From Escherichia coli (GTDB lineage: Bacteria; Pseudomonadota; Gammaproteobacteria; Enterobacterales; Enterobacteriaceae): a DNA stretch of 64,000 nt. A program made the translations under genes and the position numbers. This document shows, in pieces, positions 19,998 through 43,542 of the stretch (position 1 is the stretch's first letter; the number at the start of each line of letters is the position of its first letter). The DNA is taken from NCBI RefSeq assembly GCF_044324785.1, contig NZ_CP172127.1; one strand, given 5' to 3'. The notes beneath the pieces were generated by a model. That model worked only from the letters and a program-made list of their open reading frames with translations, searched no databases and had not been told where the DNA came from.

Positions 19998-20243
19998 TTG
20001 AGAGTTACCGGTTTTGATATGGGTGTCGAATCCTTATACAAAACACGGGTAACTCTCATGCTTCATACTACCAATCCCGTTATCAAACACAAAGCCAGTT
20101 TGCTCAATCTGGCTGAAGAACTCAGCAACGTATCAAAAGCCTGTAAAATCATGGGCGTTTCGCGTGATACGTTTTATCGTTACCGCGAACTGGCCGATGA
20201 AGGCAGGGAAAGATTACGAAAGCCCGCTCCCTGCAAGGACTGA
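19998..20243 (+). pseudogene. transposase N-terminal HTH fragment (IS481/IS3-like), truncated
   Basis: 81-aa ORF ...[34 protein letters not shown] matches the GxSRxTxYxWxxRY HTH pattern; 3' end overlaps the H-repeat transposase. Confidence 0.3.
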
Positions 20244-21287
20244 CGCCAGGTAGTTTCTGTCCATGGCTGCTTTTCGCATCTTACGTCTTAACCCTGCCTT
20301 GAATACCTTATCATTCGTTAAAATATTAATAGCGATGTGCCGTATCCCTGAAAATAATTCTGCTGCATTTCCTCTTCTTATTTTGCAGTCGTCTTCATTC
20401 ATTACCACGTCCAGACGCCAGTGCAGCTTATTCTCCACGTGCCAGTGATTTCGGATCGCTGTGGCGAACTTCTCAGCGGTTAAATCAGCAGAACTGATGT
20501 AATATCTGACCGTCATTTCTGGCTCTTTCTTTTGTTCTGCTATTATGGACCGAAAGGAGACTGCCACGCATAATTTCTTCAGTCCTTTCCATTCAAACGT
20601 GAAATCAATAAGTTCATCAGGGACATCGCAAACAATATGAAGACGGATTTCTTCTCTGCCTTGACTTTTTTCACTAATTGCGTAACTGTCATGCTCTGGA
20701 TTATTTAATTCTTTCAGTGGGAATTTTTCCTCAAAGGCTTTATTAAGCCGCCCCTGATTTCCTTTTACAGCGAATAAATAATCACCGCCCTGTTTTTGTA
20801 TCTTCTCTGCGATATCTTTCTGGCAACCCATCGCATCAGTTGTGATAATTTTTCCTTTAATATCCAGCATGTTAAGAAGTTCAGGGATAGCTGTGATCTC
20901 ATTGGATTTCTTATCCGTCCTGATCTGTCCGATGACAAGACTGTGCATTGTTGAGAACGCACTAATGACATGAATCGCTCCCCTGCGGCGACTCTTGTCA
21001 TAAGAATGCCGGAGCGTTTTTCCATCAATTGCAATAACGTCTTTATCATCTGAAGAATGGCAGTCACGCATCCCGTTAATAAAGCACTCGTGAAATTTTA
21101 CAGGACTGATACAGGATACAACTCTGGCAATGGTATCGTGAACAGGAATACCATTTTCAAAATCACCATATTGCTTCAAAAAATCGAGATGTGTTTCCCC
21201 AAAATCCTCTATATCTTCCCAGCATTCTGCACCAGAAATAACGGCACAAATAGTCAACAGTAGAATATCCGACAATTTATGTTCCAC
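20214..21287 (-). CDS. ISAs1-family (H-repeat-associated) transposase; frame extends to ATG at 21350 but is interrupted by an in-frame TAG at 21291..21293
   Basis: 357-aa ORF (V/M)[35 protein letters not shown]... typical of Rhs-linked H-rpt ORF-H; upstream in-frame MELKKLMEHISIIPDYRQA-TAG-K. Confidence 0.8.
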
Positions 21288-21696: not shown

Positions 21697-22071
21697 TTAC
21701 TCTAATGGTTTTATTAATTGTAAATTTTTAAATGTCATGCTTAATAAGCCATCAGAAAAATAAAGAAAAAATTTATATATCCTTTTGTTTTTTAATTTCT
21801 TTATATACCCATTACTTATATTACCTGACTTGTGATTATCGATTAACTCAGCAGAATCCATAGCGAACACTAAATCATCTACATCAGAAAATTCAACTAT
21901 CATTTTTTCCCTAATGTTCTCATTTTTATAAATGTCAATAAATAACGTCATGTTAAAATGAGATTCTTTGAATGTCGTTTTTACTTCTAACAAAACCCCA
22001 TCATGCCAGTCAATTGAACTCACAATGTCAAAATCGCTCATTATATAATCTCCATTATCCGTTTTAATCAT
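21697..22071 (-). CDS. ydcD: Rhs-associated immunity protein (YdcD-like), about 124 aa
   Basis: [31 protein letters not shown]...; ATG (22071..22069) overlaps the Rhs stop TGA (22070..22068) as ATGA; no signal peptide; AT-rich. Confidence 0.7.
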
Positions 22072-25000
22072 GGAGTAACAACGTTTGCAGGTATTGACCA
22101 CCAAAGAGGTGGTGCAAGTGAAGGTATAAATCGAATCACTCTATATATAACATACCCTGCGCCAATTGTAGCACCAGTTGCAAGAGCCGCATCAGTAGTT
22201 GATAGCCCGGAGGTTTTGCATGACAGATCTTTACTTGGTTCTGGCTCGAAACCATATTTTTTTGCACATTTCTTAATGCTATTTGGTGCTGATGAGTAAT
22301 CCTCACCATGGGACATACCTCCAAATTCCCCCATTACACCACTCCCATTTTTACACTCCCAATGCAAATGTCTTCCGTCACCAACAGCATCGCCATCTAT
22401 TCGGATTCGACAACCTTTACCACAGTCCTTCCATTTTCCTGAAGTATGAGCTAATCCCAATGGATCAATCCATTGCACAGGATTGTTCATAACATAACTG
22501 TACGGGTTTATTCCCCCCGCCAGCCCTATCGGATCCTGGATGATATACCGCCCCTGCAACGGATCGTAGTACCGGTGACGGTTATAATACAGCCCCGACT
22601 CCTCATCGTGTTGCTGCCCAGGCAGACGGTAGGGCTGGTGCAGGTGATGCGGGTTTTCCTCATTCAGCAGGTTTCCCCACTCATCATACTCCCCGCTCCA
22701 CGCCGTATTGCCGTCTTCGCTGATGAGCGCCAGCGGCAGGCCCCGGTGGTCGCAGTGGTAAAGATGAACTTTTCGCGCCGGTGTGTATTCCGGCTCCACC
22801 TGTCTGGCCAGTTGCTCTACCGTCAGCCCGCACTGCGCAAGCCACGCCCGGCTTTCACTGCTCACGCGGTCTGCCCGGATTTCCCCCTCCAGCCTGTCCA
22901 GCATCCTCACAAGTTCTGCCGGGAACACCACACCGTGTCCGTTCTCGCTCCCTTCCTGCTGCAACTTCTCCGCCAGGCTCCGCCGCTGCGTTTTCTCCCG
23001 CTCGCCGTTGTCTGTTTCGATGCGGATGAGTGGTGTGAAGCTTCCCGGCTCGTATACCGTCTGGATACGTGTGCTGTCGGTCTGCACCGTCGTCAGGTGG
23101 TCGCCGTCCCAGCCGTACCACGTCACCTCCGGTTTACGCGACAGCGACATCCACCCCGTCAGGTCACGTACCCGCCGCCACACCCGTTTACCCGTCCGGC
23201 GGCCCAGCGGGTCGTAGAGGTAGCGGCTCTCCACCTGCGGCTCGCCATGCTGTATCCGCGTGTAGAACACCAGGCGGTGCTGGCTGTCGTAGTGGTAGTG
23301 GTGGGTCCGCTCGTCGTCCGTCCGTATCACACCCGCCGGGATGCGGTCCGTCTTCTCCGTCAGCCTGCCGTATTCATCGTGGCGGTAGACATAGTGCGCA
23401 TCCTCCGCGATGCGGTTATCCGGCCACACTGTGAGTGTACTGTCCGGGTGCAGCTCCGGGTCCGGCAGCCGGTTGCCCGCCGGGTCCGTGGCATACGGGA
23501 TGCGGATGTCCAGGTCCGGTGCGAGGGTGCGCACACTCTCCAGCCTGCCCGTGGCGCTGTAGCCGTATTCCCGCGTCTGTCGCGGGCCGCTGATGCGCAC
23601 CAGGTCGCCGTTGTCATTCCACCCGTAGTCACGGTCATACACCAGGCTGTTCAGGTGCTGGCTCTGTAACTGGCCTGCGGGGGTGTATGTGCTGGTCAGT
23701 TCGTATGCGGCATTACTGCCTGCCATGCTGCCGAAGCTGCGCACCGTCTCCCGGTGCAGCCTGTCCCGCGTATACTCGACCCGCGGCGTCCCGCCCAGCT
23801 TCATTCCCGCCAGGTAACCGCTGCCATACGTCAGCCACTCCACCGGCGGCAGGCTGTCCGGCGTGACGCGGTTTGCCAGCCCCTGCTCGTTGTATGCGTG
23901 TTTCGTCTCATGCTGCCACAGCAGTTCCCCCGTCTCCGGGTTCTCCACCGTCTGGCGTTCGCCGGTCAGGCGGCCTTTATCGTCATAGCCGTAGTGGACC
24001 GCCACACGGTGGCCTTCACTGATATGGCTGAGGGTGGTTAACCACCCGTGCTCATCATACTGCCACTGCTCTGCCGGGTCGCCGTTCACCGTCCGGTGCG
24101 TGATGCGGTCTGCTTCATCGTAGTACCACTGCGTGACCTGCCCCTCATCCTAGCTGCGGATGAGCTGCCCTGTGGCGCTGTACCGGTAACGCTGTGTCCT
24201 GCCATCAAAGCCGCGCTGCTCCGTCAGGCGGTCCAGCACATCGTAGGTAAATTCACTCCGGCTGCCGTTCTCGTTGGTCAGCACGGTGATGCGCCCGGCA
24301 GCGTCATACCCCATGCTGCGCGTCAGCCCGCCTTCCGTCACACTCACCGGACGCCCGCGTTTATCATATGCGATGGTGCTGCGTTTACCGTCCGGTGATA
24401 TCGTTGCTGTCAGGTCGCCTGCGGCACTGTACTCATAACGGGTTTCACGCCCCTGCGCATCCTTCTGCCCTGTCAGCCTGCCGCGGCTGTCATAGAGACT
24501 ATAAATACTGAGACCTTCCTCCCGGTGAACGGCGATTTGTTGACCGTACCGGTCATACTCATACCGCGTCATGTACCCCGAGCAGTCCGTGAAGGCCCGA
24601 AGCTGACCGTACCGGTTTCGCGTTATTCTCCGCGTTACCCCGATTCCGTCTTCCACCGCGCCGGGCAGGCTACTGCGGGGGGAGTCATAAAACCAGCGTG
24701 TAATGTTACCGTTGCGCGAGGTCTCTTCTGCCAGTCGGCCCTGACGGTCATATTTCCGGCTGCTGCGTAAACCATCCGGATATGTCACTGAAGTCAGTTG
24801 CAACTGGCTGTTATAGCCATACCACACCGTCCTGCCGTCCGGCAGTATCACTGAAGTCAGCTTTCCAGACGCCATATGCAGCCGGTTCACCGTCCGCCGC
24901 CCCGCCGCATCCGTCTGCGCCTTCAGCCTCCCCGCCTCATCATACTCGCTGCGGGTGATGCTCCCGTCCGCATGCTCCTTCTTCACCACCCGCTTCAGAC

Positions 25001-26242
25001 CACCTTCGCCTTCCGTGTACAGCACCTCCCGCCGGTTCAGGCTGTCCGTGATGGTCACACGGTCCTGCCCGTACTCAAAGCGGTAGTCCAGTCCCTCCTG
25101 GTTGACCTGCTCCGTCACCCGCCCGGTATCATCATACCGGTAGCGGCTCTCCGGCCTCCCTGCATAATGGCGCGCCACCATCCGCCCGGCGTGCTCCGCA
25201 TCATAAGTAAACCCGCGCACCTGCGTCCCGCTGCGGTCATACACCGCCCGCAGTTCTCCGCTGGCCGTGTACGTGTAGCGCGCCAGCGGCGCAGTCGGCT
25301 GTTCATCCGGGTATGCCGGGTCGTGTGTCAGCCACACCGCCTCCAGACGGATACCGTTATCCGTGCCGTATTCTGTACCGGCGGGCAGCGTGTCGGGGAA
25401 AGCTGAAGAAGAGGAAGCAGAACGGGGACCTGCAGGGGAAGATAAAGACGTGGCGCGCTGTTTACGGAGGGCTTCCGCCCGCTGCGCCTGTGTGGTCAGC
25501 GCCAGATGAAAACGGCGGCCCGCGCCGTCCGTCACCCCCGTCACCGCGCCCGCCGCTTCCCCCTCTGCCGCCCGGTGGAAGGCCAGCGTCCGCCCGAAGC
25601 CGTCCACCACGCCCGTCAGCACCCGGTATGCGGGCGGCTCCGGCGGCAGCACCTCGTCCGCCTCCGGCACCCGCTCCGGCCAGCCGAGTATCAGCCACTG
25701 CCCGGTTGTGCTGGCAGCCATCATATAGATGTGTGGACTCAGACGGACCGCTTCCGGCAACGCCCGCCAGAGCCGCGCAAGCGGGTGGCCTTTGTGCTGT
25801 TTCAGCACCCCGCCCCGCGCCAGCCAGAACGACTCACTGCGGCTGTAACTTATCTCGCCGGGAAACAGGGGTTCAAAGTGAATACTTCTGCCGCCACTGT
25901 CGTTGAGTATCAGGCCTTCATCGCGTATCTGTAAGCGGATATCGAAGGGGGCTTTCCAGCCGGGACCAAACACCCCACCGGCGCGGGTGTCCTGGTCCGG
26001 TAGCTGCTGTAAGCGCGAGAAAGAATAAACGGCAGCGGGCCGGGCAGCGCAAGGTCCGTCTCGCCCGGCAGCACCTTCGCACCCAGTAGCGGGTTCAGCG
26101 GGTTAGCATAGGTAATCCCTCCCGGACACACCGAGCAGGCCACTCCCGTCGGCGCACCTATCAGCCCCCCTGCTGAACCCTGCACAATATCCAGTCCCTT
26201 GCGGGTCATGTCACCCTGCCGCGCCGCCGGTTTTCCGCTCAT
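22068..26242 (-). pseudogene. rhsE: Rhs family protein, full-length copy inactivated by a 1-nt deletion (about 25968) and an in-frame TAG (24150..24152); C-terminal tail differs from the upstream Rhs
   Basis: Three collinear minus ORFs (25910..26242, 24150..25973, 22068..24089) together align along the intact Rhs at 26781..31043; core ends ...[28 protein letters not shown] then a 127-aa unique tail. Confidence 0.8.
22480..24089. repeat. Rhs core segment nearly identical to 27286..28895 (direct repeat, constant offset 4806 bp)
   Basis: Identical encoded protein over about 380 aa ([28 protein letters not shown]...KLQQEGSE) and identical antisense ORFs at 22473..23669 and 27903..28475. Confidence 0.85.
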
Positions 26243-26318: not shown

Positions 26319-26768
26319 TTAAAGCCCACCTATTTCTTGCGACAGAAAAGGGATTTCTTTTTTAATCCAATCTACCATTTCATTTTTTTCAAAACATACG
26401 TTAATGCCATTCACACTTCCACATTCACCAAAACCATCAAAATAAATTTCACATTTATTATTTTTATTCGAAACAATGTCAATCCCCCATCTTATATCGT
26501 TATTCTCCTCCTTCCTGAAATACTTCATTTGCAATAAATCAATTATCTCACCAGCATAAAAATCGCTAACCCCATTCACCACCACTTTATGTTTGTATAT
26601 TCTCTTGAGACCTTCCTTGCTAAGCGGGGTTAAGGTGGTAACATATGCTGGAAGATTAATTATTTCTATCGTTTTCACACTATCTATTCCACACAATTCA
26701 TTCACTCGCCCCATCCCCAATACCGAAGCAGAAAATAGAGACAATAAAACCATCAAATATTTCATCAT
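26319..26768 (-). CDS. candidate immunity protein for the Rhs HExxH tail; predicted exported (N-terminal signal peptide), 149 aa
   Basis: Starts 12 bp after the Rhs stop; MMKYLMVLLSLFSASVLG hydrophobic N-terminus; four Cys (C26, C116, C123, C131); AT-rich. Confidence 0.7.
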   Translation of the reverse strand: MMKYLMVLLSLFSASVLGMGRVNELCGIDSVKTIEIINLPAYVTTLTPLSKEGLKRIYKHKVVVNGVSDFYAGEIIDLLQMKYFRKEENNDIRWGIDIVSNKNNKCEIYFDGFGECGSVNGINVCFEKNEMVDWIKKEIPFLSQEIGGL

Positions 26769-26780: not shown

Positions 26781-29700
26781 CTATTCTGGCGTGCCATTTA
26801 TTGTTGCCGTCTGTGTTGGTGTATTCACACGATAATACACTCCATTATATGCTGTTCTGGTACACTCACCTAAAGTTTTCGCCGCATGCTGTTCAATTAA
26901 AGTGATAACTCTCGCCTCTTCTTTATTTTTATATTGTTCATCCGCACGTCTCACAAGCCCCATATAGCCATCCTTATCAATAAGATATAAGTGCGCATGA
27001 GCAAACTCATGCCCCAAACCTAATGCAGGTGATTGTGATTTCGATTTTAAATCAGTTGAACAAAATAAAGCCGCCTTACCATTCCAATATATAGTCATTT
27101 TATCCGGGTCAAATCTAACGTCGGTTTCATCAATATACTCTATCTTTATGGTTTCTTCAGAGCTTGATAAAAAATCTATAGCTTCTTTCATTCGTGAATC
27201 TTGTTTTAAATACTCAACAGCCTGATTAAAATCACTTGGATCATCGTTAACATGGAATTTTAAACCCAAAGAATCTATAAACCGAACAGGGTTTAATGGA
27301 TATTTATACAGATTCCATTCACCTCTTAGCCCGATTGGATCCTGGGTGATATACCTCCCCTGTAGCGGGTCATAGTACCGGTTCCGGTTATAGTACAGTC
27401 CTGATTCCTCATCATGCTGCTGCCCCGGCAGACGGTATGGCTGGTGCAGGTGATGCGGGTTCTCCTCATTCAGCAGGTTGCCCCATTCATCATATTCCCC
27501 ACGCCATTCCGTTGCTCCTTCGGTACTGATGAGCGCCAGCGGCAGCCCCCGGTGGTCACAGTGATAAAGATGAATTTTTCGCTCAGGTAAATAAACCGGC
27601 TCTATCTGTGCCGCCAGCCGCTCCACCGTCAGCCCGCACTGTGCCAGCCACGCCCGGCTTTCACTGCTCACGCGGTCTGCCCGGATTTCCCCCTCCAGCC
27701 TGTCCAGCATCCTCACAAGTTCTGCCGGGAACACCACACCGTAGCCGTCCTCGCTTCCTTCCTGCTGCAACTTCTCCGCCAGGCTCCGCCGCTGCGTTTT
27801 CTCCCGCTCGCCGTTGTCTGTTTCGATGCGGATGAGTGGTGTGAAGCTTCCCGGCTCGTATACCGTCTGGATACGTGTGCTGTCGGTCTGCACCGTCGTC
27901 AGGTGGTCGCCGTCCCAGCCGTACCACGTCACCTCCGGTTTACGCGACAGCGACATCCACCCCGTCAGGTCACGTACCCGCCGCCACACCCGTTTACCCG
28001 TCCGGCGGCCCAGCGGGTCGTAGAGGTAGCGGCTCTCCACCTGCGGCTCGCCATGCTGTATCCGCGTGTAGAACACCAGGCGGTGCTGGCTGTCGTAGTG
28101 GTAGTGGTGGGTCCGCTCGTCGTCCGTCCGTATCACACCCGCCGGGATGCGGTCCGTCTTCTCCGTCAGCCTGCCGTATTCATCGTGGCGGTAGACATAG
28201 TGCGCATCCTCCGCGATGCGGTTATCCGGCCACACTGTGAGTGTACTGTCCGGGTGCAGCTCCGGGTCCGGCAGCCGGTTGCCCGCCGGGTCCGTGGCAT
28301 ACGGGATGCGGATGTCCAGGTCCGGTGCGAGGGTGCGCACACTCTCCAGCCTGCCCGTGGCGCTGTAGCCGTATTCCCGCGTCTGTCGCGGGCCGCTGAT
28401 GCGCACCAGGTCGCCGTTGTCATTCCACCCGTAGTCACGGTCATACACCAGGCTGTTCAGGTGCTGGCTCTGTAACTGGCCTGCGGGGGTGTATGTGCTG
28501 GTCAGTTCGTATGCGGCATTACTGCCTGCCATGCTGCCGAAGCTGCGCACCGTCTCCCGGTGCAGCCTGTCCCGCGTATACTCGACCCGCGGCGTCCCGC
28601 CCAGCTTCATGCCCGCCAGGTAACCGCTGCCATACGTCAGCCACTCCACCGGCGGCAGGCTGTCCGGCGTGACGCGGTTTGCCAGCCCCTGCTCGTTGTA
28701 TGCGTGTTTCGTCTCATGCTGCCACAGCAGTTCCCCCGTCTCCGGGTTCTCCACCGTCTGGCGTTCGCCGGTCAGGCGGCCTTTATCGTCATAGCCGTAG
28801 TGGACCGCCACACGGTGGCCTTCACTGATATGGCTGAGGGTGGTTAACCACCCGTGCTCATCATACTGCCACTGCTCTGCCGGGTCGCCGTTCACCGTCC
28901 GGTGCGTGATGCGGTCTGCTTCATCGTAGTACCAGAGGATGACAAGCCCCTCATCTTCACTCTGCGTGAGTTTTCCGGTCAGGTCATAATGATAACGTTG
29001 CGTCCGCCCGTCAAAGCCGCGCTGCTGTACCAGGCGGTCCAGCGCATCGTAGCTGAAGTCGCTGTGACTGCCGTTCTCGTTGGTCAGGCTGATGACACGT
29101 CCGGCAGCATCGTACTCCATACTGCGCGTCAGCCCGCCCTGCGTGGTGCTGACCGCCTTTCCCCACGCATCGTACTGTGTCTCGCTCCGGTTGCCGTCCG
29201 GGGTGATAACGGCAGTCAGGTCGCCTGCGGCGTTGTACTCATACTGCGTTTCACGGCCCTGTGCGTCTTTCACCGAGGTTAACCGGCCACGGTTGTCATA
29301 GCGGCGGTAACGGCTGATACCTTCCTCACGGTGGACCGCCGTCATCTGACCAAAGCGGTCGTATTCATAACGGGTCTGGTAGCCCGAGCAGTCGGTGAAC
29401 GCCAGCAACTGCCCGTAGCGGCTCCAGGTCATCTGCCGGGTGCTGCCCGTCGCATCCGTTGTCGTCGCCGGTAATTCACTGTGCGGATTATCATAAGCAT
29501 ACCGGATGACGTCCCCACTGCGCGATGTCTCCGTTACCAGCCTGCCCGGTTCATCATATGCCCGGCGGCTCTCCAGCCCGTCCGGGGACACCACTGCCGT
29601 CACCTGGTTCCCGTCGTTATAGTAAAATTTCGTCTCCCGCCCGTCCGGTGTGGTGATGTCCGTGATATCGCCTGACACCACATTCAGACCGTACTCTGTC

Positions 29701-31043
29701 CGCCGTCCCGCCGCGTCCGTCTGCGCCGTAAGCCGCCCCACCGGGTCATACCCGCTGCGCGTGACGCTGCCGTCCGCCAGTTCTTTTTTCACCACCCGTT
29801 TCAGCCCGCCTTCACCTTCTGTATGCAGCACCTCACGCCGGTTCAGGCTGTCCGTGACGGTGATGCGGTCCTGCTCATACTGGTAGCGGTAACTCAGGCC
29901 TGCCGGGTTCAGCTGCTCCACCACCCGCCCCGCATCGTCGTAGCGGTAGCGCATCTCCGGCCTTCCCGCGTAACGGTGCGCCACCATCCGGCCCGGGTGC
30001 TGCGCGTCATACGTGAAAGCGCGCACCTGCGTATTGCTGCGGTCATATACCGCCAGCAGTTCACCGGCTTCCGTATACGTGTACCGCGCCAGTGGCGCAC
30101 CGGGCAGATTCTCCGGGTATGCCGGGTCGTACATCAGCCACACCGCTGAAAGACGGATACCCCTGTCGGGGCCGTATTCCGTACCGGGCAGTGTGTCGGG
30201 GAAAGCTGAGTCTGAAAGAGGGCGGGGGGTGTCAGGGGAAAATAAGGAAGCGGTGTGCTGTTTACGGGCCTCTTCCGCCCGCTGCGCCTGCGTGGTCAGC
30301 ACCAGACGGAACTCCCGCCCGGCACCGTCCGTCACGCCGGTGATTTCCCCGGCCAGGTCACCGGCGGCCTCACGCCGGTACGCCAGCGTCCGCCCGAAGC
30401 GGTCTGCCAGCCCGGTAAGCACCCGGTACGGCGGCAGCGGCGCTGGCAGTACGTCCTCAGCACCCGGCACCCGCTCTGACCACCCCAGTATCCACCACGG
30501 CCCCTGTGCGCTGTTGGTCGCCAGGTAAAGATGCGGGCTTAACCGGATATCCGGCGGCAGCGCCCCCCACAGCCGTGCCAGCGTGTGGCCGTCCGGCTGC
30601 GCTGCCTTACCACCGCGCACCAGCCACATTGACTCGCTGCGGCTGTACACCGCCTCACCCGGCAGCAGCGGCTCAAAGTGAATGCTCCGCCCGCCGTTGT
30701 CGTTGAGTATCAGTCCGTCATCACGTAGCTGTAAGCGGATATCAGAAGGCGCTTTCCAGCCGGGGCCGAAAACGCCCACCGGCGCAGGCGTCTTCGTCCG
30801 GTAGCTGCTGTAGGTGCGGGAGAGAATGAACGGCAGCGGGCCGGGCAGCGCAAGGTCCGTCTCGCCGGGCAGCACCTTCGCCCCCAGCAGCGGATTTACC
30901 GGGTTGCCCGAAGTCATCCCGCCCGGACACACCGAGCACGCCACGCCGGTGGGCGCGCCAATTCTTACACCTGCCGAACCCTGGACAATGGGACCGCCAT
31001 ACTGAGTCATATCTCCCTGACGCGCCGCTGGTTTTCCGCTCAT
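26781..31043 (-). CDS. Rhs family protein with conserved PAAR-like N-terminus, YD-repeat core and C-terminal tail containing an HExxH motif, 1420 aa
   Basis: [42 protein letters not shown]...; YD repeats; core ends ...[27 protein letters not shown]; tail 26781..27260 contains [10 protein letters not shown] (codons at 26997..27011). Confidence 0.9.
27286..28895. repeat. Rhs core segment nearly identical to 22480..24089
   Basis: see paired repeat. Confidence 0.85.
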
Positions 31044-31109
31044 GATTCAATTCCTTCTTCTGTTTATTTTTAATGCTTGTTTGTTACTGAATACCGAACA
31101 GGTACGGGA

Positions 31110-33218
31110 TCAGTACTCTCTCATATCCGGCGTATCCTGCTTTTCATCAGGGGTCTTCGGTGGGGATTTCGAGGCTGCACAGTTCCAGTTAATCAACAGT
31201 GAGTCACCATTAACCTGCTCCTTACCCTGCAAATGAATTTTTGTGCCGTTGAGAAAAATTTGTCCGTCCTTAGTCAGCACCAGCCTTGCCTTACCACAGC
31301 AGAGTTCCAGATGCTCACCGGCGGAGTAAATCGCGGTCTGCCCGGTATCATCCTTTTTCGTTTTACCAACGGTGAAGGTAACGTTATTTCCGACTTTGAC
31401 GTCATAACCCAGCCCGACCCTCAACGATTTATGCAAACCGATCTGCGAGGACTGCATCAGGGCCACCGAGGTGTTCATAATGCCACCTACCGTCGTCTGA
31501 TACGCCACGCCCACAGTCAGCGCACGCACAAGTCCAATCGTTTCCACCTGAACAGAGCCCACTTTAATGATCTGGTTACTGCCCACCGTCTCTATCTGGT
31601 TAACACCCACCGTCTGTATCTGATTGTTGGTAACCGCAATCATCTGATTGTTGCCAATGGTCTCAGCATGGTTGTTTATCACATCCGTGGTGCGGTTATT
31701 CAGCACCTCGGTGTTCATATTCTTCTGCGCGTGGATGTAGACCTGTTCTTTCCCTGTCGCATCGTCAAACTTCAGTTCATTAAACCCGCTGCCCTTATAG
31801 GTTTTCGAACGAATGGTCATCTGCGTCTTTGTTCCCGGCAGGCTGCCGGGGGTGCGGTTTTCCTGGTGGTAGGTACGCCCCATAATAATCGGCTGGTCCG
31901 GATCGCCGTTGAGGAAGTCCACAATGACTTCCTGACCCACACGCGGTATCGCCAGGTTGCCAAAGCTGGTGCCTGCCCACGCCTGTGCCACACGGATCCA
32001 GCATGAACTGTCCTGGTTTGACGGGTTATAGCGGTCCCAGTTAAATTTCACCCGCACGCGGCCATGTTCATCACAGAAGATTTCCTCGCCTGCCGGTCCT
32101 GTCACGACGGCGCTCTGCGGGCCATCCACCAGCGGTTTCAGCAACGGCTGTGGTCGCCATGTTCTGTCTGCCGGTATTACCGCAAAGTGGTTATTCAGTG
32201 TGGTACCCGAACCACTGCGTCCCGGCACCGCCTGCGGCTGCTCGCCGTGCAGATCGCTCGCCACCACCTGCCATTCACGGTTCAGGTTCGCCTGCGGATG
32301 CCCCGTCAGCGCAATTCGCCGTCCCGGCCATATCTCCGGCGAACGGCTTGTTCCGCGCGCCACTTCTGCGTTGTTTCGCCAGCCATCCATCTGCCAGCGG
32401 GCAAAGTTCTGCCCGTGGGCACCCTTGAAACGTCCGGGGTAGTCATACACTTCATACTGTGTGCGCTGGTAATCCTGGTGCTGGCCTTCCTGATCAAAAC
32501 GCCCTGCCCAGCCGGGTCGTTTAAAGGTGTAGTCTTTGGTCACCACGGAAGATGGGCGGATTTGTGCGCTGTAGCGGAACTGGCTGATGCAGAGGGTGCT
32601 CACCTCGGTACGGGTGTTCGGATTCCAGGGGATCTCAAAGGACTCCGGCAGATAACGCACGGTGTCGCACAGGACCAGGCTCTGGTCGGTACTTTTTTGC
32701 GCGTGCTCCTCATAAAAGAAGATGCCTTCCTCCGCCGCCATCCGGCACAGGAAATCGTAATCGGTCTCACCGTACTGGACACAAAATTCACGGGAAGGAT
32801 GCGGCTCGCTGAACAGCGGACTCCACTCGGTCACCCCGTTTTCTTTCAGGATCGTCACGAGGATGCTTTCGATGTCCTCATTCTGGAAGATACGGAAGTT
32901 CTGGCGCAGCCCTGTGCGCCACAGCGGTGGGCACACCTTCATGCTGTACAGCATCTGGTTTTTGTCGTTCTCCCCCAGTTCAAACCAGGTCACCACACCT
33001 TTCACCCGGCGCTGTACGTCATCGCCCTGCCATACCGTCAGGTAGGCCATTTTGTCCAGCACCTGCGCAAATTCAAGGGAAAGAAACTGCTGACTGACCA
33101 GAGAAAGGTCGAGGGAAAAAAGTGAAGAGAGTGACTGGTTCAGATGAAAGGAGACCACCGCAAACGCGTCCGGTGGCAGGCCGTCCACTTCCAGCGTGAA
33201 ACGTAATCCGGTTGACAT
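31110..33218 (-). CDS. vgrG: VgrG (type VI secretion spike protein), about 702 aa
   Basis: MSTGLRFTLEVDGLPPDAFAVVSFHLNQSLSSLFSLDLSLVS... with GGAGG RBS; ends 67 bp before the Rhs start; track ORF extends to 33323 but the RBS supports 33218. Confidence 0.88.
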   Translation of the reverse strand: MSTGLRFTLEVDGLPPDAFAVVSFHLNQSLSSLFSLDLSLVSQQFLSLEFAQVLDKMAYLTVWQGDDVQRRVKGVVTWFELGENDKNQMLYSMKVCPPLWRTGLRQNFRIFQNEDIESILVTILKENGVTEWSPLFSEPHPSREFCVQYGETDYDFLCRMAAEEGIFFYEEHAQKSTDQSLVLCDTVRYLPESFEIPWNPNTRTEVSTLCISQFRYSAQIRPSSVVTKDYTFKRPGWAGRFDQEGQHQDYQRTQYEVYDYPGRFKGAHGQNFARWQMDGWRNNAEVARGTSRSPEIWPGRRIALTGHPQANLNREWQVVASDLHGEQPQAVPGRSGSGTTLNNHFAVIPADRTWRPQPLLKPLVDGPQSAVVTGPAGEEIFCDEHGRVRVKFNWDRYNPSNQDSSCWIRVAQAWAGTSFGNLAIPRVGQEVIVDFLNGDPDQPIIMGRTYHQENRTPGSLPGTKTQMTIRSKTYKGSGFNELKFDDATGKEQVYIHAQKNMNTEVLNNRTTDVINNHAETIGNNQMIAVTNNQIQTVGVNQIETVGSNQIIKVGSVQVETIGLVRALTVGVAYQTTVGGIMNTSVALMQSSQIGLHKSLRVGLGYDVKVGNNVTFTVGKTKKDDTGQTAIYSAGEHLELCCGKARLVLTKDGQIFLNGTKIHLQGKEQVNGDSLLINWNCAASKSPPKTPDEKQDTPDMREY

Positions 33219-34036
33219 AGCAACCTCCGTGAAAATGAATAATAATCCGCACATATTGCATGTACAACATGTCGGGCGGATGAGATAAGCGAGTCGACAT
33301 CTGGCGTTACCGGGGAATATCAAAAAATGTCATGGTTATGTGATGATTTAGTCTGGGATTTTACTTCAGAGAAACGGGTGTCTGTTTAGTCAACAAAATA
33401 ATCACAAACGCAACGGATGGGTTCTCGACGTTATTCACGACAGGCTCGTACATTACAGCGAGTAATAAAAACCTGATATGCAAAGTCAAACCAATATTCA
33501 TAATGTCTTTTTATTCACAACAATAAATAATTCAATAACAATCATTGAAATGAATGATGGTTTGTATAAGGAATATACGCTGCCGCCCCACCCTGATAAC
33601 ATGATCTGCACATTGCCATCTTAACGTCGTTAAACACTGGCTTAATAGTGGATATTTAAAATTAGGAATTTATTAAATTCACCTGATGAATATCATAAGC
33701 AAATAGCATAGAAAATAATGACAACTCCCCCGAGGGGACCATTTCCAAAGCACTGCACCACCACCTGGTGCCCGGATGATCTTGCTTCAGTGGTAAGAGT
33801 ACCTGATTCATTGTTCCCAAAATGGTGTTTTCCCCTGCCCCTCCAATAATGTGCAGCTCTCACGTGATAATCTATTGATTAGGTTATATTAAGAATCAAT
33901 ATTTGAAATACATCCATTTTCTTGAATAAATCAACATGTTTATTTATCAATTGCTGTTTTAGCTCTGACTCATCAAGCTCTCCATATTTGTCCTACAGAT
34001 AATCGCGAATAAATACAGAGAACGCCATTTATCCTT

Positions 34037-34249
34037 TTAGCATACCTGCCGGATATTTTTATTTGTATTAATATTAATTGCATCTCCAACTCCGAGCATA
34101 TCCATCATTAAAAACATTTTGAGATTATAGAATGCCTGTAATAACAACTGAAACATCAGCACAATGTGAATAGTTAGTTTCTTTTCAGAGGAAATGAAAT
34201 AGACAAGCTGAATGAAAGGGAGAGTGATATAAATTAAAAAACATAACAT
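34037..34249 (-). CDS. yncH: small 70-aa ORF at the position of yncH (DUF5445); could also be noncoding
   Basis: Size and position downstream of yncG match K-12 yncH; sequence is hydrophobic and AT-rich, so coding status is uncertain. Confidence 0.35.
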   Translation of the reverse strand: MLCFLIYITLPFIQLVYFISSEKKLTIHIVLMFQLLLQAFYNLKMFLMMDMLGVGDAININTNKNIRQVC

Positions 34250-34324
34250 GAATCTAATTAATTACGTTCATCATTGTGGATAAAGTTACTGAATAATAAA
34301 TAACATAATCTTCTGGTATCCCAC

Positions 34325-36820: not shown

Positions 36821-37882
36821 TTACAGCGCAATACGAATCACATCATCCGGCTGGGTTGCTTCCTGCTGTTTAGTGGATTTTTGTTTCACACTGACATACA
36901 GCGTTTTACCATCGGCAGACAGCGCCAGGCTGTTCGGATGAGTCGGCGTATCGAACGTTTTCACCACTTTATAGCTTTTCGCGTCAATCACACTGACTTT
37001 ACCTGCCTGACGATGCGTTACGTAGGCTTCATTACGCGCGGGGTTAAACAGCACAGCCAGTGATTCCGGTGCCGCAACCTTCGCCAGAATATTGCCATTA
37101 CGGGTATCGACCACTAACACTTCTGCCGCTTTAGAATCGGTGATAAATGCACGCTGCCTGGCGGTATCAAGGCTGATGTTGATAAAGAAGTGCTCTTTGC
37201 CGTCATCCAGCAGCTTTTTACGGCTGAGGATTTTATTGTCGGCGGTGTCGATGGTAATCAATTCACCGTCAGCGTTAGTGGTGTAAAGACGTTTGCCTTT
37301 GCTATCCAGCGCTAAACCGGTACTCATTTTACCGGTGTTCTGGATGGCGGTTTTCAGTTTGATATTCTCGCCATCAACGACCCAAATCACGCTCTCTTTA
37401 CCAATACCACTGATGTAAACGGTGTTCGTGGCATCGTCTGCCACCAGCTCACGCGGTTGCAGCGGGCGCACCTCTTCAGTGCGCTTACGATCATCCAGCA
37501 CCAGACGGCCTTTCACTTCGCCCGTTTTGGCATCTATCGCCGTGACCGCGCTGTTTACTGTGTTACCAAACCACAACGTCTGAGTCGTGTTATTGATGGT
37601 GGCACCAAACGGCTTGAGATCGTTATGGATCGCCTGCGTCACTTCCAGAGTGACCGGATCAAGACGATAAACCACGCCGCCTTTATCCAGTTTGCGGCTT
37701 TGCGAAGTGGCGAGCCACAGCGCGTTTTCTTGCTGGCTATAAGCCATTTCGTAGGCACCTTTACCTACCGCTTTACGCAGCATTTCTTCTGCGGCCTGCG
37801 TACTGAATGATGAAGCAACAAGCAATGAACCTAACAGTAATGAACCACGCAGGCGCGATGAAAACAGATGACGTAAATGCAT
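36821..37882 (-). CDS. yncE: PQQ-like beta-propeller protein, exported, 353 aa
   Basis: MHLRHLFSSRLRGSLLLGSLLVASSFSTQA signal peptide; 353 aa. Confidence 0.88.
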   Translation of the reverse strand: MHLRHLFSSRLRGSLLLGSLLVASSFSTQAAEEMLRKAVGKGAYEMAYSQQENALWLATSQSRKLDKGGVVYRLDPVTLEVTQAIHNDLKPFGATINNTTQTLWFGNTVNSAVTAIDAKTGEVKGRLVLDDRKRTEEVRPLQPRELVADDATNTVYISGIGKESVIWVVDGENIKLKTAIQNTGKMSTGLALDSKGKRLYTTNADGELITIDTADNKILSRKKLLDDGKEHFFINISLDTARQRAFITDSKAAEVLVVDTRNGNILAKVAAPESLAVLFNPARNEAYVTHRQAGKVSVIDAKSYKVVKTFDTPTHPNSLALSADGKTLYVSVKQKSTKQQEATQPDDVIRIAL

Positions 37883-38123
37883 GACGACTCCCTTTGATGA
37901 ACCGATATTTTTGCTGCTTCACAATGCTTCGCTAAGCGTAATCATCGTTACGCCCTTGTTATAAATGGGAATGGTAATCATTATTTTCTCAAATGTGGAG
38001 CATTTCTTGCCGTTACGACTACAATTTTCTCAATTACTTAACGTATCGTGCCGTTTCGTTTTCCATAAATTTACAATTTTATTACCATGACGGCGTTTTC
38101 CCATTCTTAACCTGGCTTTTTTC

Positions 38124-40226
38124 ATGAAGATTTTTTCCGTCCGACAGACCGTTTTGCCCGCACTGCTTGTCCTTTCCCCCGTTGTTTTTGCCGCTGATGA
38201 ACAGACCATGATTGTCAGTGCCGCGCCGCAGGTGATTTCAGAACTGGATACCCCAGCAGCCGTGAGCGTGGTGGATGGCGAGGAGATGCGCCTGGCAACA
38301 CCGCGCATTAACTTGTCTGAATCACTGACTGGCGTGCCTGGTTTGCAGGTACAAAACCGGCAGAACTATGCGCAAGATTTACAGCTGTCGATTCGCGGAT
38401 TTGGCTCCCGCTCCACTTACGGAATTCGCGGTATTCGCCTGTATGTGGACGGTATTCCCGCCACCATGCCCGACGGACAAGGGCAAACATCCAACATCGA
38501 TTTAAGCAGTGTGCAAAATGTGGAAGTGCTGCGTGGCCCCTTCTCTGCCCTGTATGGCAACGCGTCTGGCGGTGTAATGAATGTCACCACCCAGACCGGA
38601 CAACAGCCACCAACCATTGAAGCCAGTAGTTACTACGGCAGTTTTGGCAGCTGGCGCTATGGCCTGAAAGCAACGGGCGCAACGGGAGACGGCACACAGC
38701 CTGGCGATGTCGATTACACCGTCTCAACCACGCGTTTTACGACCCACGGCTATCGTGACCATAGTGGCGCACAGAAAAATTTAGCTAATGCCAAACTGGG
38801 TGTACGCATTGATGACGCCAGCAAATTAAGCCTGATTTTCAATAGTGTGGATATCAAAGCAGATGACCCTGGTGGGCTAACCAAAGCAGAATGGAAGGTG
38901 AATCCACAACAAGCGCCTCGTGCAAAACAGTACGACACGCGAAAAACCATCAAGCAAACTCAGGCTGGGTTGCGCTATGAACGTAGCCTGAGCGCTCAAG
39001 ATGATATGAGTGTGATGATGTATGCCGGAGAGCGAGAAACGACCCAGTACCAGTCAATCCCGATGGCCCCCCAACTTAACCCGTCGCATGCGGGCGGCGT
39101 GATTACTCTGCAACGCCATTATCAGGGGGTAGACAGTCGCTGGACACACCGTGGCGAGCTGAGCGTTCCGGTCACGTTCACTACCGGCCTGAACTACGAA
39201 AACATGAGTGAAAACCGCAAGGGCTACAATAACTTTCGCCTGAATAGCGGCGTGCCGGAATACGGGCAAAAAGGTGAGTTGCGTCGCGACGAACGCAATC
39301 TGATGTGGAACGTCGATCCCTATTTACAGACGCAGTGGCAGCTGAGCGAAAAACTGTCGCTGGATGCTGGCGTGCGCTACAGCTCCGTGTGGTTTGATTC
39401 CAACGACCATTACGTTACTCCGGGTAACGGCGATGACAGCGGTGATGCCAGTTATCACAAATGGCTACCTGCCGGATCGTTAAAATATGCAATGACCGAT
39501 GCCTGGAATATCTATCTGGCAGCCGGGCGCGGTTTTGAAACGCCGACGATTAATGAACTGTCTTATCGTGCTGACGGTCAAAGCGGTATGAACTTTGGTT
39601 TAAAACCATCCACCAACGATACCATTGAAATCGGCAGTAAAACGCGTATTGGTGATGGGCTGCTTAGTCTCGCATTGTTCCAGACCGACACTGATGATGA
39701 AATTGTTGTCGATAGCAGTAGCGGTGGGCGTACCACATATAAAAATGCCGGAAAGACCCGTCGTCAAGGCGCTGAACTGGCATGGGATCAACGTTTCGCG
39801 GGAGATTTTCGCGTAAAAGCGTCCTGGACCTGGCTTGATGCGACCTATCGCAGCAATGTTTGCAATGAACAGGATTGTAACGGTAACCGGATGCCAGGGA
39901 TTGCCCGTAATATGGGCTTTGCGTCGATAGGTTATGTACCGGAAGATGGCTGGTATGCAGGTACAGAAGCGCGTTACATGGGCGATATTATGGCAGATGA
40001 TGAAAATACGGCCAAAGCGCCGTCTTATACTCTCGTCGGCTTATTCACCGGGTATAAATACAATTACCACAATTTAACTGTGGATTTATTTGGTCGTGTC
40101 GATAATTTATTCGATAAAGGATACGTTGGTTCTGTCATTGTCAATGAGTCAAACGGGCGATATTACGAACCTGCGCCCGGGCGAAATTATGGTGTCGGCA
40201 TGAATATTGCGTGGCGATTTGAGTAA
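38124..40226 (+). CDS. yncD: TonB-dependent outer-membrane receptor, 700 aa
   Basis: Signal peptide, TonB box region, C-terminal ...NIAWRFE beta-barrel terminus. Confidence 0.88.
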   Translation: MKIFSVRQTVLPALLVLSPVVFAADEQTMIVSAAPQVISELDTPAAVSVVDGEEMRLATPRINLSESLTGVPGLQVQNRQNYAQDLQLSIRGFGSRSTYGIRGIRLYVDGIPATMPDGQGQTSNIDLSSVQNVEVLRGPFSALYGNASGGVMNVTTQTGQQPPTIEASSYYGSFGSWRYGLKATGATGDGTQPGDVDYTVSTTRFTTHGYRDHSGAQKNLANAKLGVRIDDASKLSLIFNSVDIKADDPGGLTKAEWKVNPQQAPRAKQYDTRKTIKQTQAGLRYERSLSAQDDMSVMMYAGERETTQYQSIPMAPQLNPSHAGGVITLQRHYQGVDSRWTHRGELSVPVTFTTGLNYENMSENRKGYNNFRLNSGVPEYGQKGELRRDERNLMWNVDPYLQTQWQLSEKLSLDAGVRYSSVWFDSNDHYVTPGNGDDSGDASYHKWLPAGSLKYAMTDAWNIYLAAGRGFETPTINELSYRADGQSGMNFGLKPSTNDTIEIGSKTRIGDGLLSLALFQTDTDDEIVVDSSSGGRTTYKNAGKTRRQGAELAWDQRFAGDFRVKASWTWLDATYRSNVCNEQDCNGNRMPGIARNMGFASIGYVPEDGWYAGTEARYMGDIMADDENTAKAPSYTLVGLFTGYKYNYHNLTVDLFGRVDNLFDKGYVGSVIVNESNGRYYEPAPGRNYGVGMNIAWRFE

Positions 40227-40261
40227 TTACCTTGATGCCCGGTATTTGCCGGGCATTTACT

Positions 40262-40927
40262 TTAACGATTGTATTGCTGATATAAAATAGCAATATTCTG
40301 TTGCATAATTTCAGCAAGACAATGTCTGCATCCCTCTTTGTCTTTTGCTTTTAACGCGGCGAGTAATAGATGATAGTTTTCTATACGCTCCCGTAATTCT
40401 GCTGGATTAATCGTTTCATAGAGATAATGTAAACCAGGTCCCATCCTGACCCACAGTTGCTCAATCATCTCACACAGGATGGGCATATTTGAACGATGAT
40501 AAATCGCTAAGCGAAATAGCCTGTTCGCATTAATGATTTGTTCCATGTCGCCCTTTTCTTGCGCCTGCTGTAATTTCTCGAGTAAATCATGGAATTCCGC
40601 CAGGTCTTGCTGGGTGAGGTTTTCAACAGCCAGAGCAACTGCCATTAATTCCAGTTCGTAGCGGATCCGATTGATTTCGTCTAATTGACGTTTCCCCACT
40701 TCCGGAACTGTAAATGCTTGCGCAGGTGCGACAGAGAGCGCATTCACCGAAACCAGACGTAATAATGCTTCACGCACGGGTGTAATACTTATACCTAATT
40801 GCTCCGCCAGATTTTTAGTAATCAGGCGTGCGCCAGGTTTTAGTGCTCCAATACTAAGCTGATGTTTCAGGTCGTTCTCAACCTTCATAGTTAAACTGAT
40901 ATGCGGTATTTTTTCCGTTCCAGGCAT
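40262..40927 (-). CDS. mcbR: GntR-family transcriptional regulator, 221 aa
   Basis: HTH ...LAEQLGISITPVREALLRL...; 221 aa. Confidence 0.85.
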   Translation of the reverse strand: MPGTEKIPHISLTMKVENDLKHQLSIGALKPGARLITKNLAEQLGISITPVREALLRLVSVNALSVAPAQAFTVPEVGKRQLDEINRIRYELELMAVALAVENLTQQDLAEFHDLLEKLQQAQEKGDMEQIINANRLFRLAIYHRSNMPILCEMIEQLWVRMGPGLHYLYETINPAELRERIENYHLLLAALKAKDKEGCRHCLAEIMQQNIAILYQQYNR

Positions 40928-41125
40928 GTTATTTCCTTCAGGTGTTTTCGTTCCAACTCTGCCAGCACAGCAGAAGTCGTTTACCTGGCGTATGAAGCTG
41001 AATAATCATTATCCACTCACCTTTATTGTTATTAGCTACAGAACAGAGAAGTGGTAAGTTAATTAAAGCTGGAAATAAGATTTTTGCCTGGATTTTTATG
41101 GCGGCTTTACGCCGCCGTCGTATCT

Positions 41126-42163: not shown

Positions 42164-42343
42164 AATGCTCTCCTGTGCTTTTGGCATGAATCCATCAATA
42201 GTAGCAGGCTCACGGGATTGGTTTTGTTTGCAGCCGTCACACCCCCTCTGCAACACGCGATAATTTCATCGGGGAATCCGTTGCTTCGGGCTGTTTTCGA
42301 TAGTATTGATAACATCATCATCATTATTTTATCGAGGCCAGAC

Positions 42344-43308: not shown

Positions 43309-43542
43309 TCAGAGGATGGTGCCACCTTTGGTTAACTGTTCGTGGCGCGCTTCCATATCTTCTTTATGCTTGCGACCGTGATGAGCAATAGCGGTGCGCA
43401 AACGCTGCTGCTGGGTGTAGCGATCTTCCCGACTTAACTCCGCGTCATCGCTCAGGGCGATTAATAATTCGTTCATATGGGCAATGACGCTCTCTTCAAT
43501 CGCGGCATCCACGCGCGCGATGACTTCATCCAGATGCGACAT
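43309..43542 (-). CDS. ydcY: DUF2526 protein, 77 aa
   Basis: MSHLDEVIARVDAAIEESVIAHMNELLIALSDDAELSRE... Confidence 0.8.
   Translation of the reverse strand: MSHLDEVIARVDAAIEESVIAHMNELLIALSDDAELSREDRYTQQQRLRTAIAHHGRKHKEDMEARHEQLTKGGTIL

Follow-up and report, generated by a model that had tools for sequence, protein, structure and literature searches.

An adaptor-less vgrG-rhs pair at the rhsE site of Escherichia coli, very probably a second copy of the T6SS-2 spike-plus-toxin module

In E. coli O157:H7 EDL933 (EHEC), an orphan vgrE locus comprising Z2253-Z2262 has been described (PMC12981562), in which rhsE follows a vgrG of its own and EagR is encoded in a separate vgrG island (PMC7216683). 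The locus has been attributed to the T6SS-2 type (PMC12981562; PMC7216683), and in the published view both it and its T6SS are degenerating (PMC12981562). More generally, E. coli has Rhs proteins that are chaperoned by EagR and, in addition, a class without a chaperone that is related to T6SS2-Rhs (PMC6730261). The effectors bound and served by Eag chaperones combine a prePAAR motif with N-terminal transmembrane domains and a PAAR domain; Eag-dependent Rhs effectors, such as Serratia Rhs1 with EagR1, P. protegens RhsA with EagR1, and the product of E. coli vgrGO1-eagR-rhs, have the motif AARxxDxxxH, one transmembrane-helix region, and a full PAAR domain, and their eag gene lies between vgrG and rhs (PMC7773334). 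A different arrangement is found in P. aeruginosa, where tse5 (PA2684), with tsi5, sits beside its dedicated vgrG1c (PA2685) and away from the main cluster. Tse5 is cleaved between K47 and P48, its DUF6531 domain serves as a plug anchoring the N-terminal fragment, and its residues 1 to 29 are disordered (PMC10684867). The fragment itself is PAAR-like and comprises 47 residues, and Tse5 uses VgrG1c (PMC10684867; PMC7376260).

We analyzed a 64-kb stretch of E. coli DNA (the window; all features given below lie on its minus strand), which contains a locus of the EDL933 kind. Synteny with annotated genomes placed this locus at the E. coli rhsE site, with yncH-yncG-ansP on one side and ydcC-nhoA-narZ on the other. 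Like the EDL933 vgrE locus, which also lies by yncH/yncG/ansP, the window island consists of a vgrG, an rhs with its immunity gene, and a second rhs, with no tss genes nearby. The two differ in that rhsE of EDL933 is in three genes, whereas in the window the first rhs (rhs1) is intact and the second (rhs2) is broken; their toxin tips also differ, as is normal for Rhs proteins. The vgrE-rhsE satellite locus is real, ordinary, and already well known: the yncH-vgrG junction that marks it is present in 2974 of the 5426 complete E. coli genomes, or more than half. In K-12, by comparison, yncH is followed by an rhsE pseudogene and vgrG is absent, as stated in an earlier note on this DNA; homology to K-12 ends ∼68 nt upstream of the window vgrG start, and vgrG and most of rhsE have already been lost from that strain. 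The housekeeping DNA flanking the island has a best complete-genome match of 97.5%, and a divergence of ∼2.5% separates the lineage of the window from most sequenced E. coli. Its closest relatives are GCA_053151395.1, which is 99.8 to 100% identical across the locus, GCA_002468915.1, and N3, the closest complete genome.

The vgrG gene (31110..33218) is intact and of the vgrE type. It begins with an ATG at 33218, preceded at a distance of 5 nt by the ribosome-binding site GGAGG (33224..33228), and ends with a TGA at 31112-31110. The start MSTGLRFTLEV and the ribosome-binding site given in the earlier note could both be read from the sequence. The encoded T6SS spike protein of 702 residues, which ends LINWNCAASKSPPKTPDEKQDTPDMREY, scored 626.9 bits against TIGR03361 (cut-off, 186) and 445.6 bits against TIGR01646. 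An exact-sequence look-up returned no identical protein. Its Pfam matches, Phage_GPD at residues 29 to 327 (E = 1.9e-74), Phage_base_V at 384 to 450, and Gp5_trimer_C at 467 to 621, correspond to the gp27-like head, the gp5 OB-fold, and the gp5 C-terminal beta-helix of a VgrG/TssI spike. No Pfam domain was found past residue 621, unlike in evolved VgrGs, which carry a C-terminal effector or adaptor domain (e.g., DUF2345 or TTR); the conserved helix end is followed by only a 27-residue low-complexity tail. The spacer between vgrG and rhs1 (31044..31109) holds the rhs ribosome-binding site GAAGGA, and no terminator-like site was found in it; its length is 66 nt, one less than the 67 bp reported earlier. 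The ATG of rhs1 follows at 31043.

A near-identical module resides in the T6SS-2 main cluster of N3, which lies in the tRNA-Asp (aspV) island and, like the window, has no adaptor gene in its vgrG-rhs module. The window VgrG matches the main-cluster VgrG of N3 at 697 of 702 residues (99.3%), the 66-nt spacers are the same base for base, and the first 180 residues of the Rhs proteins are identical. Because of this combination of VgrG, spacer, and Rhs N terminus, we consider it very probable that the window island belongs to the E. coli T6SS-2 as its orphan vgrE-rhsE accessory locus, located apart from the tss genes, and represents a second chromosomal copy of the main-cluster spike-plus-toxin module. 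The shared unit extends from 33229 to 27298 of the window (5939 nt, 98.3% identity), with homology beginning only 11 nt before the vgrG ATG. Outside this unit the copies differ: in the main cluster (the module whose rhs is rhsG in PMC10711316), hcp precedes the module and tssB-M flank it, whereas the window copy is preceded by an AT-rich region of its own, and the two carry different C-terminal toxins and immunity genes.

The presence and integrity of the T6SS-2 cluster in the source strain itself are inferred from its relatives, and their state bears on another reading of the locus, in which the island is a relic in a strain with no working T6SS and persists because of gene conversion with other rhs genes or because of the immunity genes it carries. 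Damage is common among these genomes. The T6SS-2 of N3 has annotated frameshifts in tssA and in a vasL-domain gene, that of GCA_053151395.1 has an IS inside tagH, and in several relatives rhs1 or vgrG is split or frameshifted at the vgrE locus. In the window itself, rhs2 is in three pieces. The published view of the EHEC locus and the losses in K-12 described above are consistent with decay as well. Furthermore, the vgrE junction is present without the T6SS-2 sheath genes tssBC in at least 791 complete genomes (2974 versus 2183, of 5426), which indicates that decoupled islands are common and that killing ability cannot be predicted from the presence of the island alone; orphan vgrG-rhs islands are often more numerous than the machines able to fire them. 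Against the relic reading, the window has vgrG (702 aa) and rhs1 (1420 aa) intact, as well as the immunity ORF, each with a good ribosome-binding site, and some of the frameshifts in the assemblies of relatives may be sequencing errors, N3 having many in unrelated genes. The T6SS-2 cluster is also present in both of the closest genomes, N3 and GCA_053151395.1, in the latter on the same contig as the vgrE locus (the two lying at ∼1.19 Mb and ∼2.71 Mb), so that a relic is not supported for the lineage. We regard it as unlikely, and favor a second copy that would still be served by a T6SS-2 machine.

The earlier note had claimed that VgrG and Rhs are coupled directly with no adaptor gene, and this was borne out, antisense frames included. 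At 66 nt, the spacer leaves no room to encode an adaptor. Between yncH and vgrG lies an AT-rich, locus-specific stretch of 818 nt (33219..34036) in which no ORF exceeds 56 aa; searched in its three minus-strand frames, it gave no Pfam match even at E ≤ 10 and contained no adaptor ORF. Likewise, two long antisense ORFs within vgrG and two small ORFs located after rhs had no significant Pfam match, and no adaptor is annotated beside vgrG-rhs in the RefSeq records of syntenic genomes. In all, no Eag/DUF1795, DUF4123, or DUF2169 gene was found in the 64-kb window, whether in ORFs, the spacer, the upstream region, or antisense frames, which sets the pair apart from the DUF4123/DUF2169 adaptor-dependent class, as no such gene lies between or beside vgrG and rhs1. 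Presumably, the operon promoter lies within 33219..34036. A scan for promoters and terminators across 30900-34300 returned sites in numbers no higher than in shuffled sequences, and for this reason no particular promoter is claimed. Genes for tss components and hcp were absent from the 64-kb window, as judged from synteny with three annotated genomes that span it and from NCBIfam scans of the nonsyntenic ORFs. This agrees with the earlier statement that the window has no other T6SS genes and supports its corollary that the machine on which toxin delivery depends must be encoded elsewhere.

The structure of Rhs1 offers a reason for the missing adaptor. The rhs1 gene (26781..31043) encodes an intact Rhs core protein of 1420 aa with a variable C-terminal toxin. 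Residues 1 to 1261 matched NF041261 (RHS_core) with 2753.6 bits (cut-off, 2000), TIGR03696 matched at 1184 to 1261, and TIGR01643 repeats were matched as well; in Pfam, DUF6531 (46 to 123) was followed by many RHS_repeat matches and by RHS at 1157 to 1193. The protein thus has the parts of an Rhs/YD-repeat polymorphic toxin, namely, a core, an N-terminal plug, the Rhs-associated core (the aspartyl protease region of the class definition), and a variable C terminus, with an immunity ORF downstream. Ahead of the plug of the Rhs cage (DUF6531; 30675..30908, E = 5.8e-18) is an N-terminal piece of 47 residues (30903..31043) which, from Pfam and structure alignments, contains one PAAR repeat at residues 2 to 29. 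PAAR_motif (PF05488) was matched by residues 3 to 20 only (model positions 52 to 69, E = 0.28), and the alignment of residues 2 to 29 with the PAAR proteins 4JIV, 9RCE, and 4JIW covered only the last repeat in each (E, 0.008 to 0.24). There was no significant full-length match of Rhs1 to the canonical three-repeat PAAR domain (PF05488).

Among solved structures, Tse5 (8CP6) was the best match to Rhs1 (E = 3.4e-34). The start of its chain B, PVNPMLG, aligned to residue 48 of Rhs1, where the piece ends between N47 and P48 (PVNPLLG), at the position of the Tse5 cleavage site. With an N-terminal piece of ∼47 residues before PVNP.LG, a DUF6531 plug, and no transmembrane domain, all features shared with Tse5, Rhs1 belongs by sequence to the Tse5-like class, and its cleavage between N47 and P48 is predicted. 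The two systems also have in common that the Rhs gene, located outside the main cluster, has a dedicated vgrG as its neighbor. They differ in that Tse5 is from another genus and belongs to the H1-T6SS; the comparison of sequences concerns the Rhs side. The toxins are different too, Tse5 being a pore-former and Rhs1 carrying a putative HExxH peptidase paired with an immunity protein that has a signal-peptide-like N terminus.

The Eag-dependent prePAAR effectors resemble the window module in their vgrG island, cage toxin, and immunity gene, and in the mounting of the Rhs on the VgrG tip. However, Rhs1 differs from them in each of the features that mark prePAAR class I. In its motif, a tyrosine replaces the conserved histidine of AARxxDxxxH, it has no full PAAR domain, and no DUF1795 ORF lies in the window. 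N-terminal transmembrane helices are missing as well; no hydrophobic segment was found anywhere in Rhs1, the highest 19-residue Kyte-Doolittle mean being 0.87. An adaptor is accordingly expected to be missing beside a protein with no transmembrane segment and only one PAAR repeat, and the absence of Eag or DUF4123 genes next to a short, transmembrane-free, Tse5-like Rhs should not be taken as an anomaly. It could still be argued that an adaptor or chaperone is needed and supplied in trans, e.g., by an EagR, which many E. coli strains encode in a separate vgrG-eagR-rhs island (z0706 in EDL933; PMC7216683; PMC6730261). We consider this highly improbable, given that Eag chaperones bind the N-terminal transmembrane domains of prePAAR effectors (PMC7773334), of which Rhs1 has none; that the main-cluster copy of the module in N3 has no adaptor either; and that for Tse5, the closest characterized relative, VgrG1c alone is named and no chaperone is mentioned (PMC10684867; PMC7376260). 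Direct coupling also has a natural precedent in a VgrG-Rhs fusion of 1879 residues (PDB 8QJA). The window VgrG aligned from residue 24 to 619 with residues 24 to 625 of this chain, and the window Rhs from 60 to 139 with 849 to 928; 8QJA is a single polypeptide, whereas the window has two genes 66 nt apart, and it shows that a spike and an Rhs can be joined without an intermediary.

Taken together, these comparisons suggest how the pair might work. vgrG and rhs1 would be cotranscribed from the local promoter. Over its first 500 residues, VgrG hardly differs from the main-cluster VgrG, and its trimeric spike should therefore be compatible with the baseplate and Hcp tube that the latter uses. By homology, and following what has been proposed for Tse5 on VgrG1c, the 47-residue piece with the single PAAR repeat would attach Rhs1 directly to the VgrG beta-helix at its blunt end. 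A helper of the Eag, DUF4123, or DUF2169 type would probably be unneeded, because Rhs1 has no transmembrane segment to shield and the published class definition ties Eag dependence to such segments. Firing would depend on the T6SS-2 machine, whose cluster is located ∼1.5 Mb away in the closest relatives. Understood in this way, the locus is standard E. coli T6SS-2 biology, with little significance beyond its correct annotation.

The earlier note had suggested that the C-terminal tail of VgrG is the docking surface for the Rhs N terminus. This tail (INWNC...PDMREY), residues 676 to 702 (31113..31193), reads INWNCAASKSPPKTPDEKQDTPDMREY and follows the last conserved beta-helix strands. It is of low complexity and hydrophilic, with 63% P/E/S/Q/K/D/T against 40% in the remaining protein. 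In an alignment drawn from short fragments rather than full-length VgrGs (obtained by searching for homologues of the last 143 residues), the tail varied among homologues in both sequence and length. Its extreme end was semiconserved as PDMR[EQK][YF] in several of them despite the variable linker, which speaks for a function of the tail as docking surface or specificity element that substitutes for an adaptor and perhaps completes the one-repeat PAAR-like piece. The same idea draws on the finding that Rhs1 provides one of three PAAR repeats, so that something else may complete the tip, and on joint divergence of the partners. Between two VgrG allele classes, residues 1 to 500 were 96 to 100% identical, but identity fell to 76 to 86% and then 64% in the C-terminal third and to 38% in the tail; the partner Rhs N termini of the same two classes were 72% identical over 200 residues. 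On the other side, joint variation seen in a comparison of two allele classes is equally explained by linkage within one recombination block. Moreover, the tail is the least conserved and most disorder-like part of VgrG, and the conserved block is instead the beta-helix end before it (YSAGEHLELCCGKARLVLTKDG.IFLNG...INWNC). PAAR-type domains are reported to sit at this conserved end of the VgrG beta-helix. We therefore think it quite unlikely that the tail is the docking surface, and prefer attachment of Rhs1 to the beta-helix end itself. A bolder version, in which three VgrG tails (or three Rhs N termini) complete the tip and the tail is a built-in adaptor and specificity code, seems to us a little less probable still; if it were true, the tail code would decide which of the many "neighborless" E. 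coli Rhs proteins a given spike carries.

The toxin that the Rhs cage would enclose comprises residues 1262 to 1420 of Rhs1 (26784..27260; 159 residues) and contains the HExxH motif HEFAH. It is a putative zinc metallopeptidase that falls into no described family; the match to Peptidase_M91 was weak and nonsignificant (E = 0.25), and a comparison of the toxin with solved structures found no relative. Directly after rhs1 is an ORF of 149 aa (26319..26768) that had no family match in NCBIfam or Pfam. It is a putative immunity gene, and an identical 149-aa protein always follows the Rhs1-type C terminus in other genomes. The N terminus of its product is hydrophobic and signal-peptide-like (MMKYLMVLLSLFSASVLG), suggesting that the toxin may act in the periplasm.

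The broken rhs2 (22068..26242), a second full-length rhs in tandem, is divided over three ORFs (25910-26242, 24150-25973, and 22068-24089), which cover RHS_core positions 1 to 100, 91 to 696, and 718 to 1261. Its RefSeq equivalent is marked as frameshifted with an internal stop. The pieces recur in relatives, with the 607-aa and 673-aa pieces both in L004 and L006 and the 607-aa piece also in L007 and L008, and for the near-identical L004 and L006 a Tox-WTIP domain (PF15654) is recorded at the rhs2 C terminus. The Rhs element is bordered distally by an ISAs1-family (H-repeat) transposase gene (20214..21287; NF033564, 400.9 bits), which corresponds to ydcC in K-12 and the relatives.

The 702-residue ORF running on the minus strand from an ATG at 33218 to a TGA at 31112-31110 (MSTGLRFTLEV ... 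LINWNCAASKSPPKTPDEKQDTPDMREY) scored 626.9 bits against TIGR03361 (cut-off 186) and 445.6 bits against TIGR01646, and carries the Pfam domains Phage_GPD (residues 29-327), Phage_base_V (384-450) and Gp5_trimer_C (467-621), with no Pfam domain detected beyond residue 621. These scores and domains identify the ORF as an unambiguous VgrG. Its MSTGLRFTLEV start is preceded, 5 nt upstream of the ATG, by the GGAGG ribosome-binding site read previously. The rhs1 gene, encoding 1420 residues, starts at 31043 on the same strand; the direct coupling of vgrG to rhs proposed in the earlier note therefore stands, but the spacer measures 66 nt (31044-31109) rather than 67 bp. The vgrG-rhs1 feature is real and was correctly described.

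The E. coli chromosome is collinear with the window through fdnG/yddG/narUZYWV/yddE/nhoA/yddH/ydcC on one side and yncH/yncG/ansP/yncE/pqqU/mcbR/curA ... tehAB/ydcK/rimL/opgD on the other, and by this sequence context the vgrG-rhs1 site corresponds to the rhsE locus, known in EHEC as the 'vgrE orphan locus' (Z2253-Z2262; PMC12981562). In K-12, yncH is followed at this site by an rhsE pseudogene without vgrG, and homology to the window ends ∼68 nt before vgrG begins, so the statement in the earlier note that K-12 lacks the vgrG-rhs segment was right. This boundary, at 33286, is where the deletion that removed vgrG and the 5′ portion of rhsE from K-12 starts. A second boundary, at 33229, marks the onset of homology with the module in the main T6SS-2 gene cluster of relatives; it coincides with the ribosome-binding site, 11 nt ahead of the vgrG ATG. 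Of 5426 complete E. coli genomes, 2974 have the yncH-vgrG junction (coverage ≥80%), which is thus the majority state in the species. The pair is a textbook orphan vgrG-rhs island: its class is known and its locus has a name.

We looked for an adaptor gene beside vgrG-rhs1. The 66-nt spacer is too short for a protein, and no ORF longer than 56 aa was found in the 818-nt gap separating vgrG from yncH, whose three minus-strand frames, searched as one pseudo-protein, gave no Pfam match at a threshold as loose as E≤10. Two long antisense ORFs within vgrG and two small post-rhs ORFs gave no significant Pfam match, and RefSeq annotation of syntenic genomes places no gene or pseudogene in either the spacer or the gap. 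Together, these searches bear out the claim that no DUF1795 (Eag) or DUF4123 adaptor flanks the pair, including in an unannotated frame of the gap or among the small and antisense ORFs. Across the 64 kb, no tss, hcp, eag, DUF4123 or DUF2169 gene was present, all other genes being assigned via synteny or NCBIfam, which agrees with the reported lack of T6SS structural genes.

Three traits define the clients of Eag chaperones: the motif AARxxDxxxH, transmembrane helices at the N-terminus and a PAAR domain (PMC7773334). Rhs1 departs from AARxxDxxxH at the corresponding motif, with tyrosine replacing the conserved histidine, its top 19-residue Kyte-Doolittle window averages only 0.87, and it has no full PAAR domain: the PF05488 match is limited to residues 3-20 (E=0.28), and residues 2-29 align solely with the last of three repeats in the PAAR structures 4JIV, 9RCE and 4JIW (E 0.008-0.24). 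Since Rhs1 is unlike Eag-dependent effectors on every defining count, namely motif, hydrophobicity and PAAR domain, no adaptor would be expected. Among solved structures, Rhs1 is closest to P. aeruginosa Tse5 (8CP6, E 3.4e-34), whose shell chain start, PVNPMLG, aligns with P48 (PVNPLLG) of Rhs1. E. coli reportedly has two Rhs classes, one EagR-chaperoned and the other unchaperoned and related to the T6SS-2 cluster Rhs (PMC6730261), and in EDL933 EagR and rhsE lie in different vgrG islands (PMC7216683).

Of the nearest relatives found, GCA_053151395.1 is 99.8-100% identical to the window at this locus and GCA_002468915.1 is 99.9% identical along 9.4 kb; strain N3 is 99.05% identical, and its housekeeping DNA reaches 98.6% in the left flank. 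Against essentially all of the 5426 complete genomes, the housekeeping flanks (1-24000 and 34000-58000) show only 97.1-97.7% identity, and from this flank identity, about 97.5% at most, the source strain looks like a member of a somewhat divergent E. coli lineage common to N3 and GCA_053151395.1. In N3, a walk that started at the rhsE locus and headed for the tRNA-Asp (aspV) island located a T6SS-2 cluster comprising hcp, vgrG, rhs, tssB, tssC, tssE, tssF, tssG, tagH, tssJ, tssK, dotU, clpV, vasI, tssA, tssM, a vasL-domain gene and a second hcp. There, rhs again lies directly 3′ of vgrG; the VgrG is identical to ours at 697/702 residues, the 66-nt spacer matches base for base, and residues 1-180 of the Rhs are identical to Rhs1. 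The shared unit extends over 5939 nt at 98.3% identity, from 11 nt before the vgrG ATG to the toxin-tip divergence. This near-identity of VgrG, spacer and Rhs N-terminus argues that the orphan locus is a second copy of the spike-toxin module of the main cluster, as known from N3 and GCA_053151395.1. In the latter, the closest genome, both loci lie on one 5.68-Mb contig, ∼1.5 Mb apart. Both clusters are damaged: in N3, tssA and the vasL-domain gene are annotated as frameshifted (L021, the N3 sequence, 36962-43340), and in GCA_053151395.1 an IS transposase lies within tagH (L027, its sequence, 13339-15968). Some N3 frameshifts may be assembly errors, since the unrelated genes ecpC, ecpE and ykgL are also frameshifted. 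In the same collection of 5426 genomes, T6SS-2 tssBC occurs in 2183 vs 2974 with the vgrE junction, so at least 791 retain the island without the T6SS-2 machine.

The earlier note proposed the VgrG tail, which spans residues 676-702, as a possible docking surface for the Rhs N-terminal domain. Aligned C-terminal homologues share a nearly invariant block, YSAGEHLELCCGKARLVLTKDG.IFLNG...INWNC; the segment beyond INWNC varies in length and sequence, is Pro/Asp/Glu/Lys-rich and often ends in PDMR[EQK][YF]. The main cluster of strain SB0258h1 encodes a second VgrG allele class, with rhs directly after vgrG (spacer 75 nt). This VgrG is 96-100% identical to that of the window across residues 1-500; identity then falls to 76-86%, next to 64%, and finally to 38% in the tail. 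The accompanying Rhs N-terminus is 72% identical to Rhs1 over 200 residues. Judged from these two allele classes, the VgrG C-terminal third and the Rhs N-terminus vary together, as a matched docking pair would, but simple linkage of neighbouring DNA would give the same pattern; the joint variation, moreover, spans the whole C-terminal third and does not single out the tail. Docking by the tail is thus possible but unsupported.

Rhs1 residues 1-1261 match the full length of NF041261, the 'RHS element core protein' model (2753.6 bits, cut-off 2000), followed by an unrelated 159-residue C-terminus. This toxin tip (26784-27260, minus strand) contains an HEFAH (HExxH) motif and had no significant match among families or solved structures. 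Next comes a separate 149-residue ORF (26319-26768, minus strand), the putative immunity gene, whose hydrophobic, signal-peptide-like start suggests that the toxin acts in the periplasm. The index of the assembly collection lists the identical protein in 206 blocks, and wherever inspected it lies 3′ of an Rhs C-terminus. In tandem behind it is a second full-length rhs, rhs2 (22068-26242, minus strand), broken into three ORFs covering RHS_core positions 1-100, 91-696 and 718-1261. Several relatives have the same 607-aa and 673-aa pieces, which points to old lesions. Near-identical relatives carry a Tox-WTIP (PF15654) domain at the rhs2 C-terminus, and its N-terminus (MTRKGLDIV...) is more like that of the Rhs partnering the other VgrG allele class than that of rhs1. 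Downstream, a small ORF is followed by the transposase of an ISAs1-family H-repeat.

Elsewhere in the window, two adjacent intact ORFs of 421 and 425 aa (4251-6835, plus strand, GC 0.33-0.36) lie in a low-GC insert that separates an ompC-like porin gene from narU. They gave weak leucine-rich-repeat matches (SlrP, internalin and XopAC models), all far below cut-off, and their counterparts in one RefSeq genome are annotated as pseudogenes. An IS3-family element with two ORFs (16360-17717, plus strand; transposase 299.8 bits) sits between yddE and nhoA; among the annotated genomes inspected, this site holds IS1397 in one and no IS in 19KM1831 or K-12. A low-GC patch (∼0.35) between yncL and patD encodes a CatB/Vat-like hexapeptide O-acetyltransferase (44493-45302, minus strand), which scores under the resistance-model cut-offs and is present in strain 746 and not in 19KM1831.
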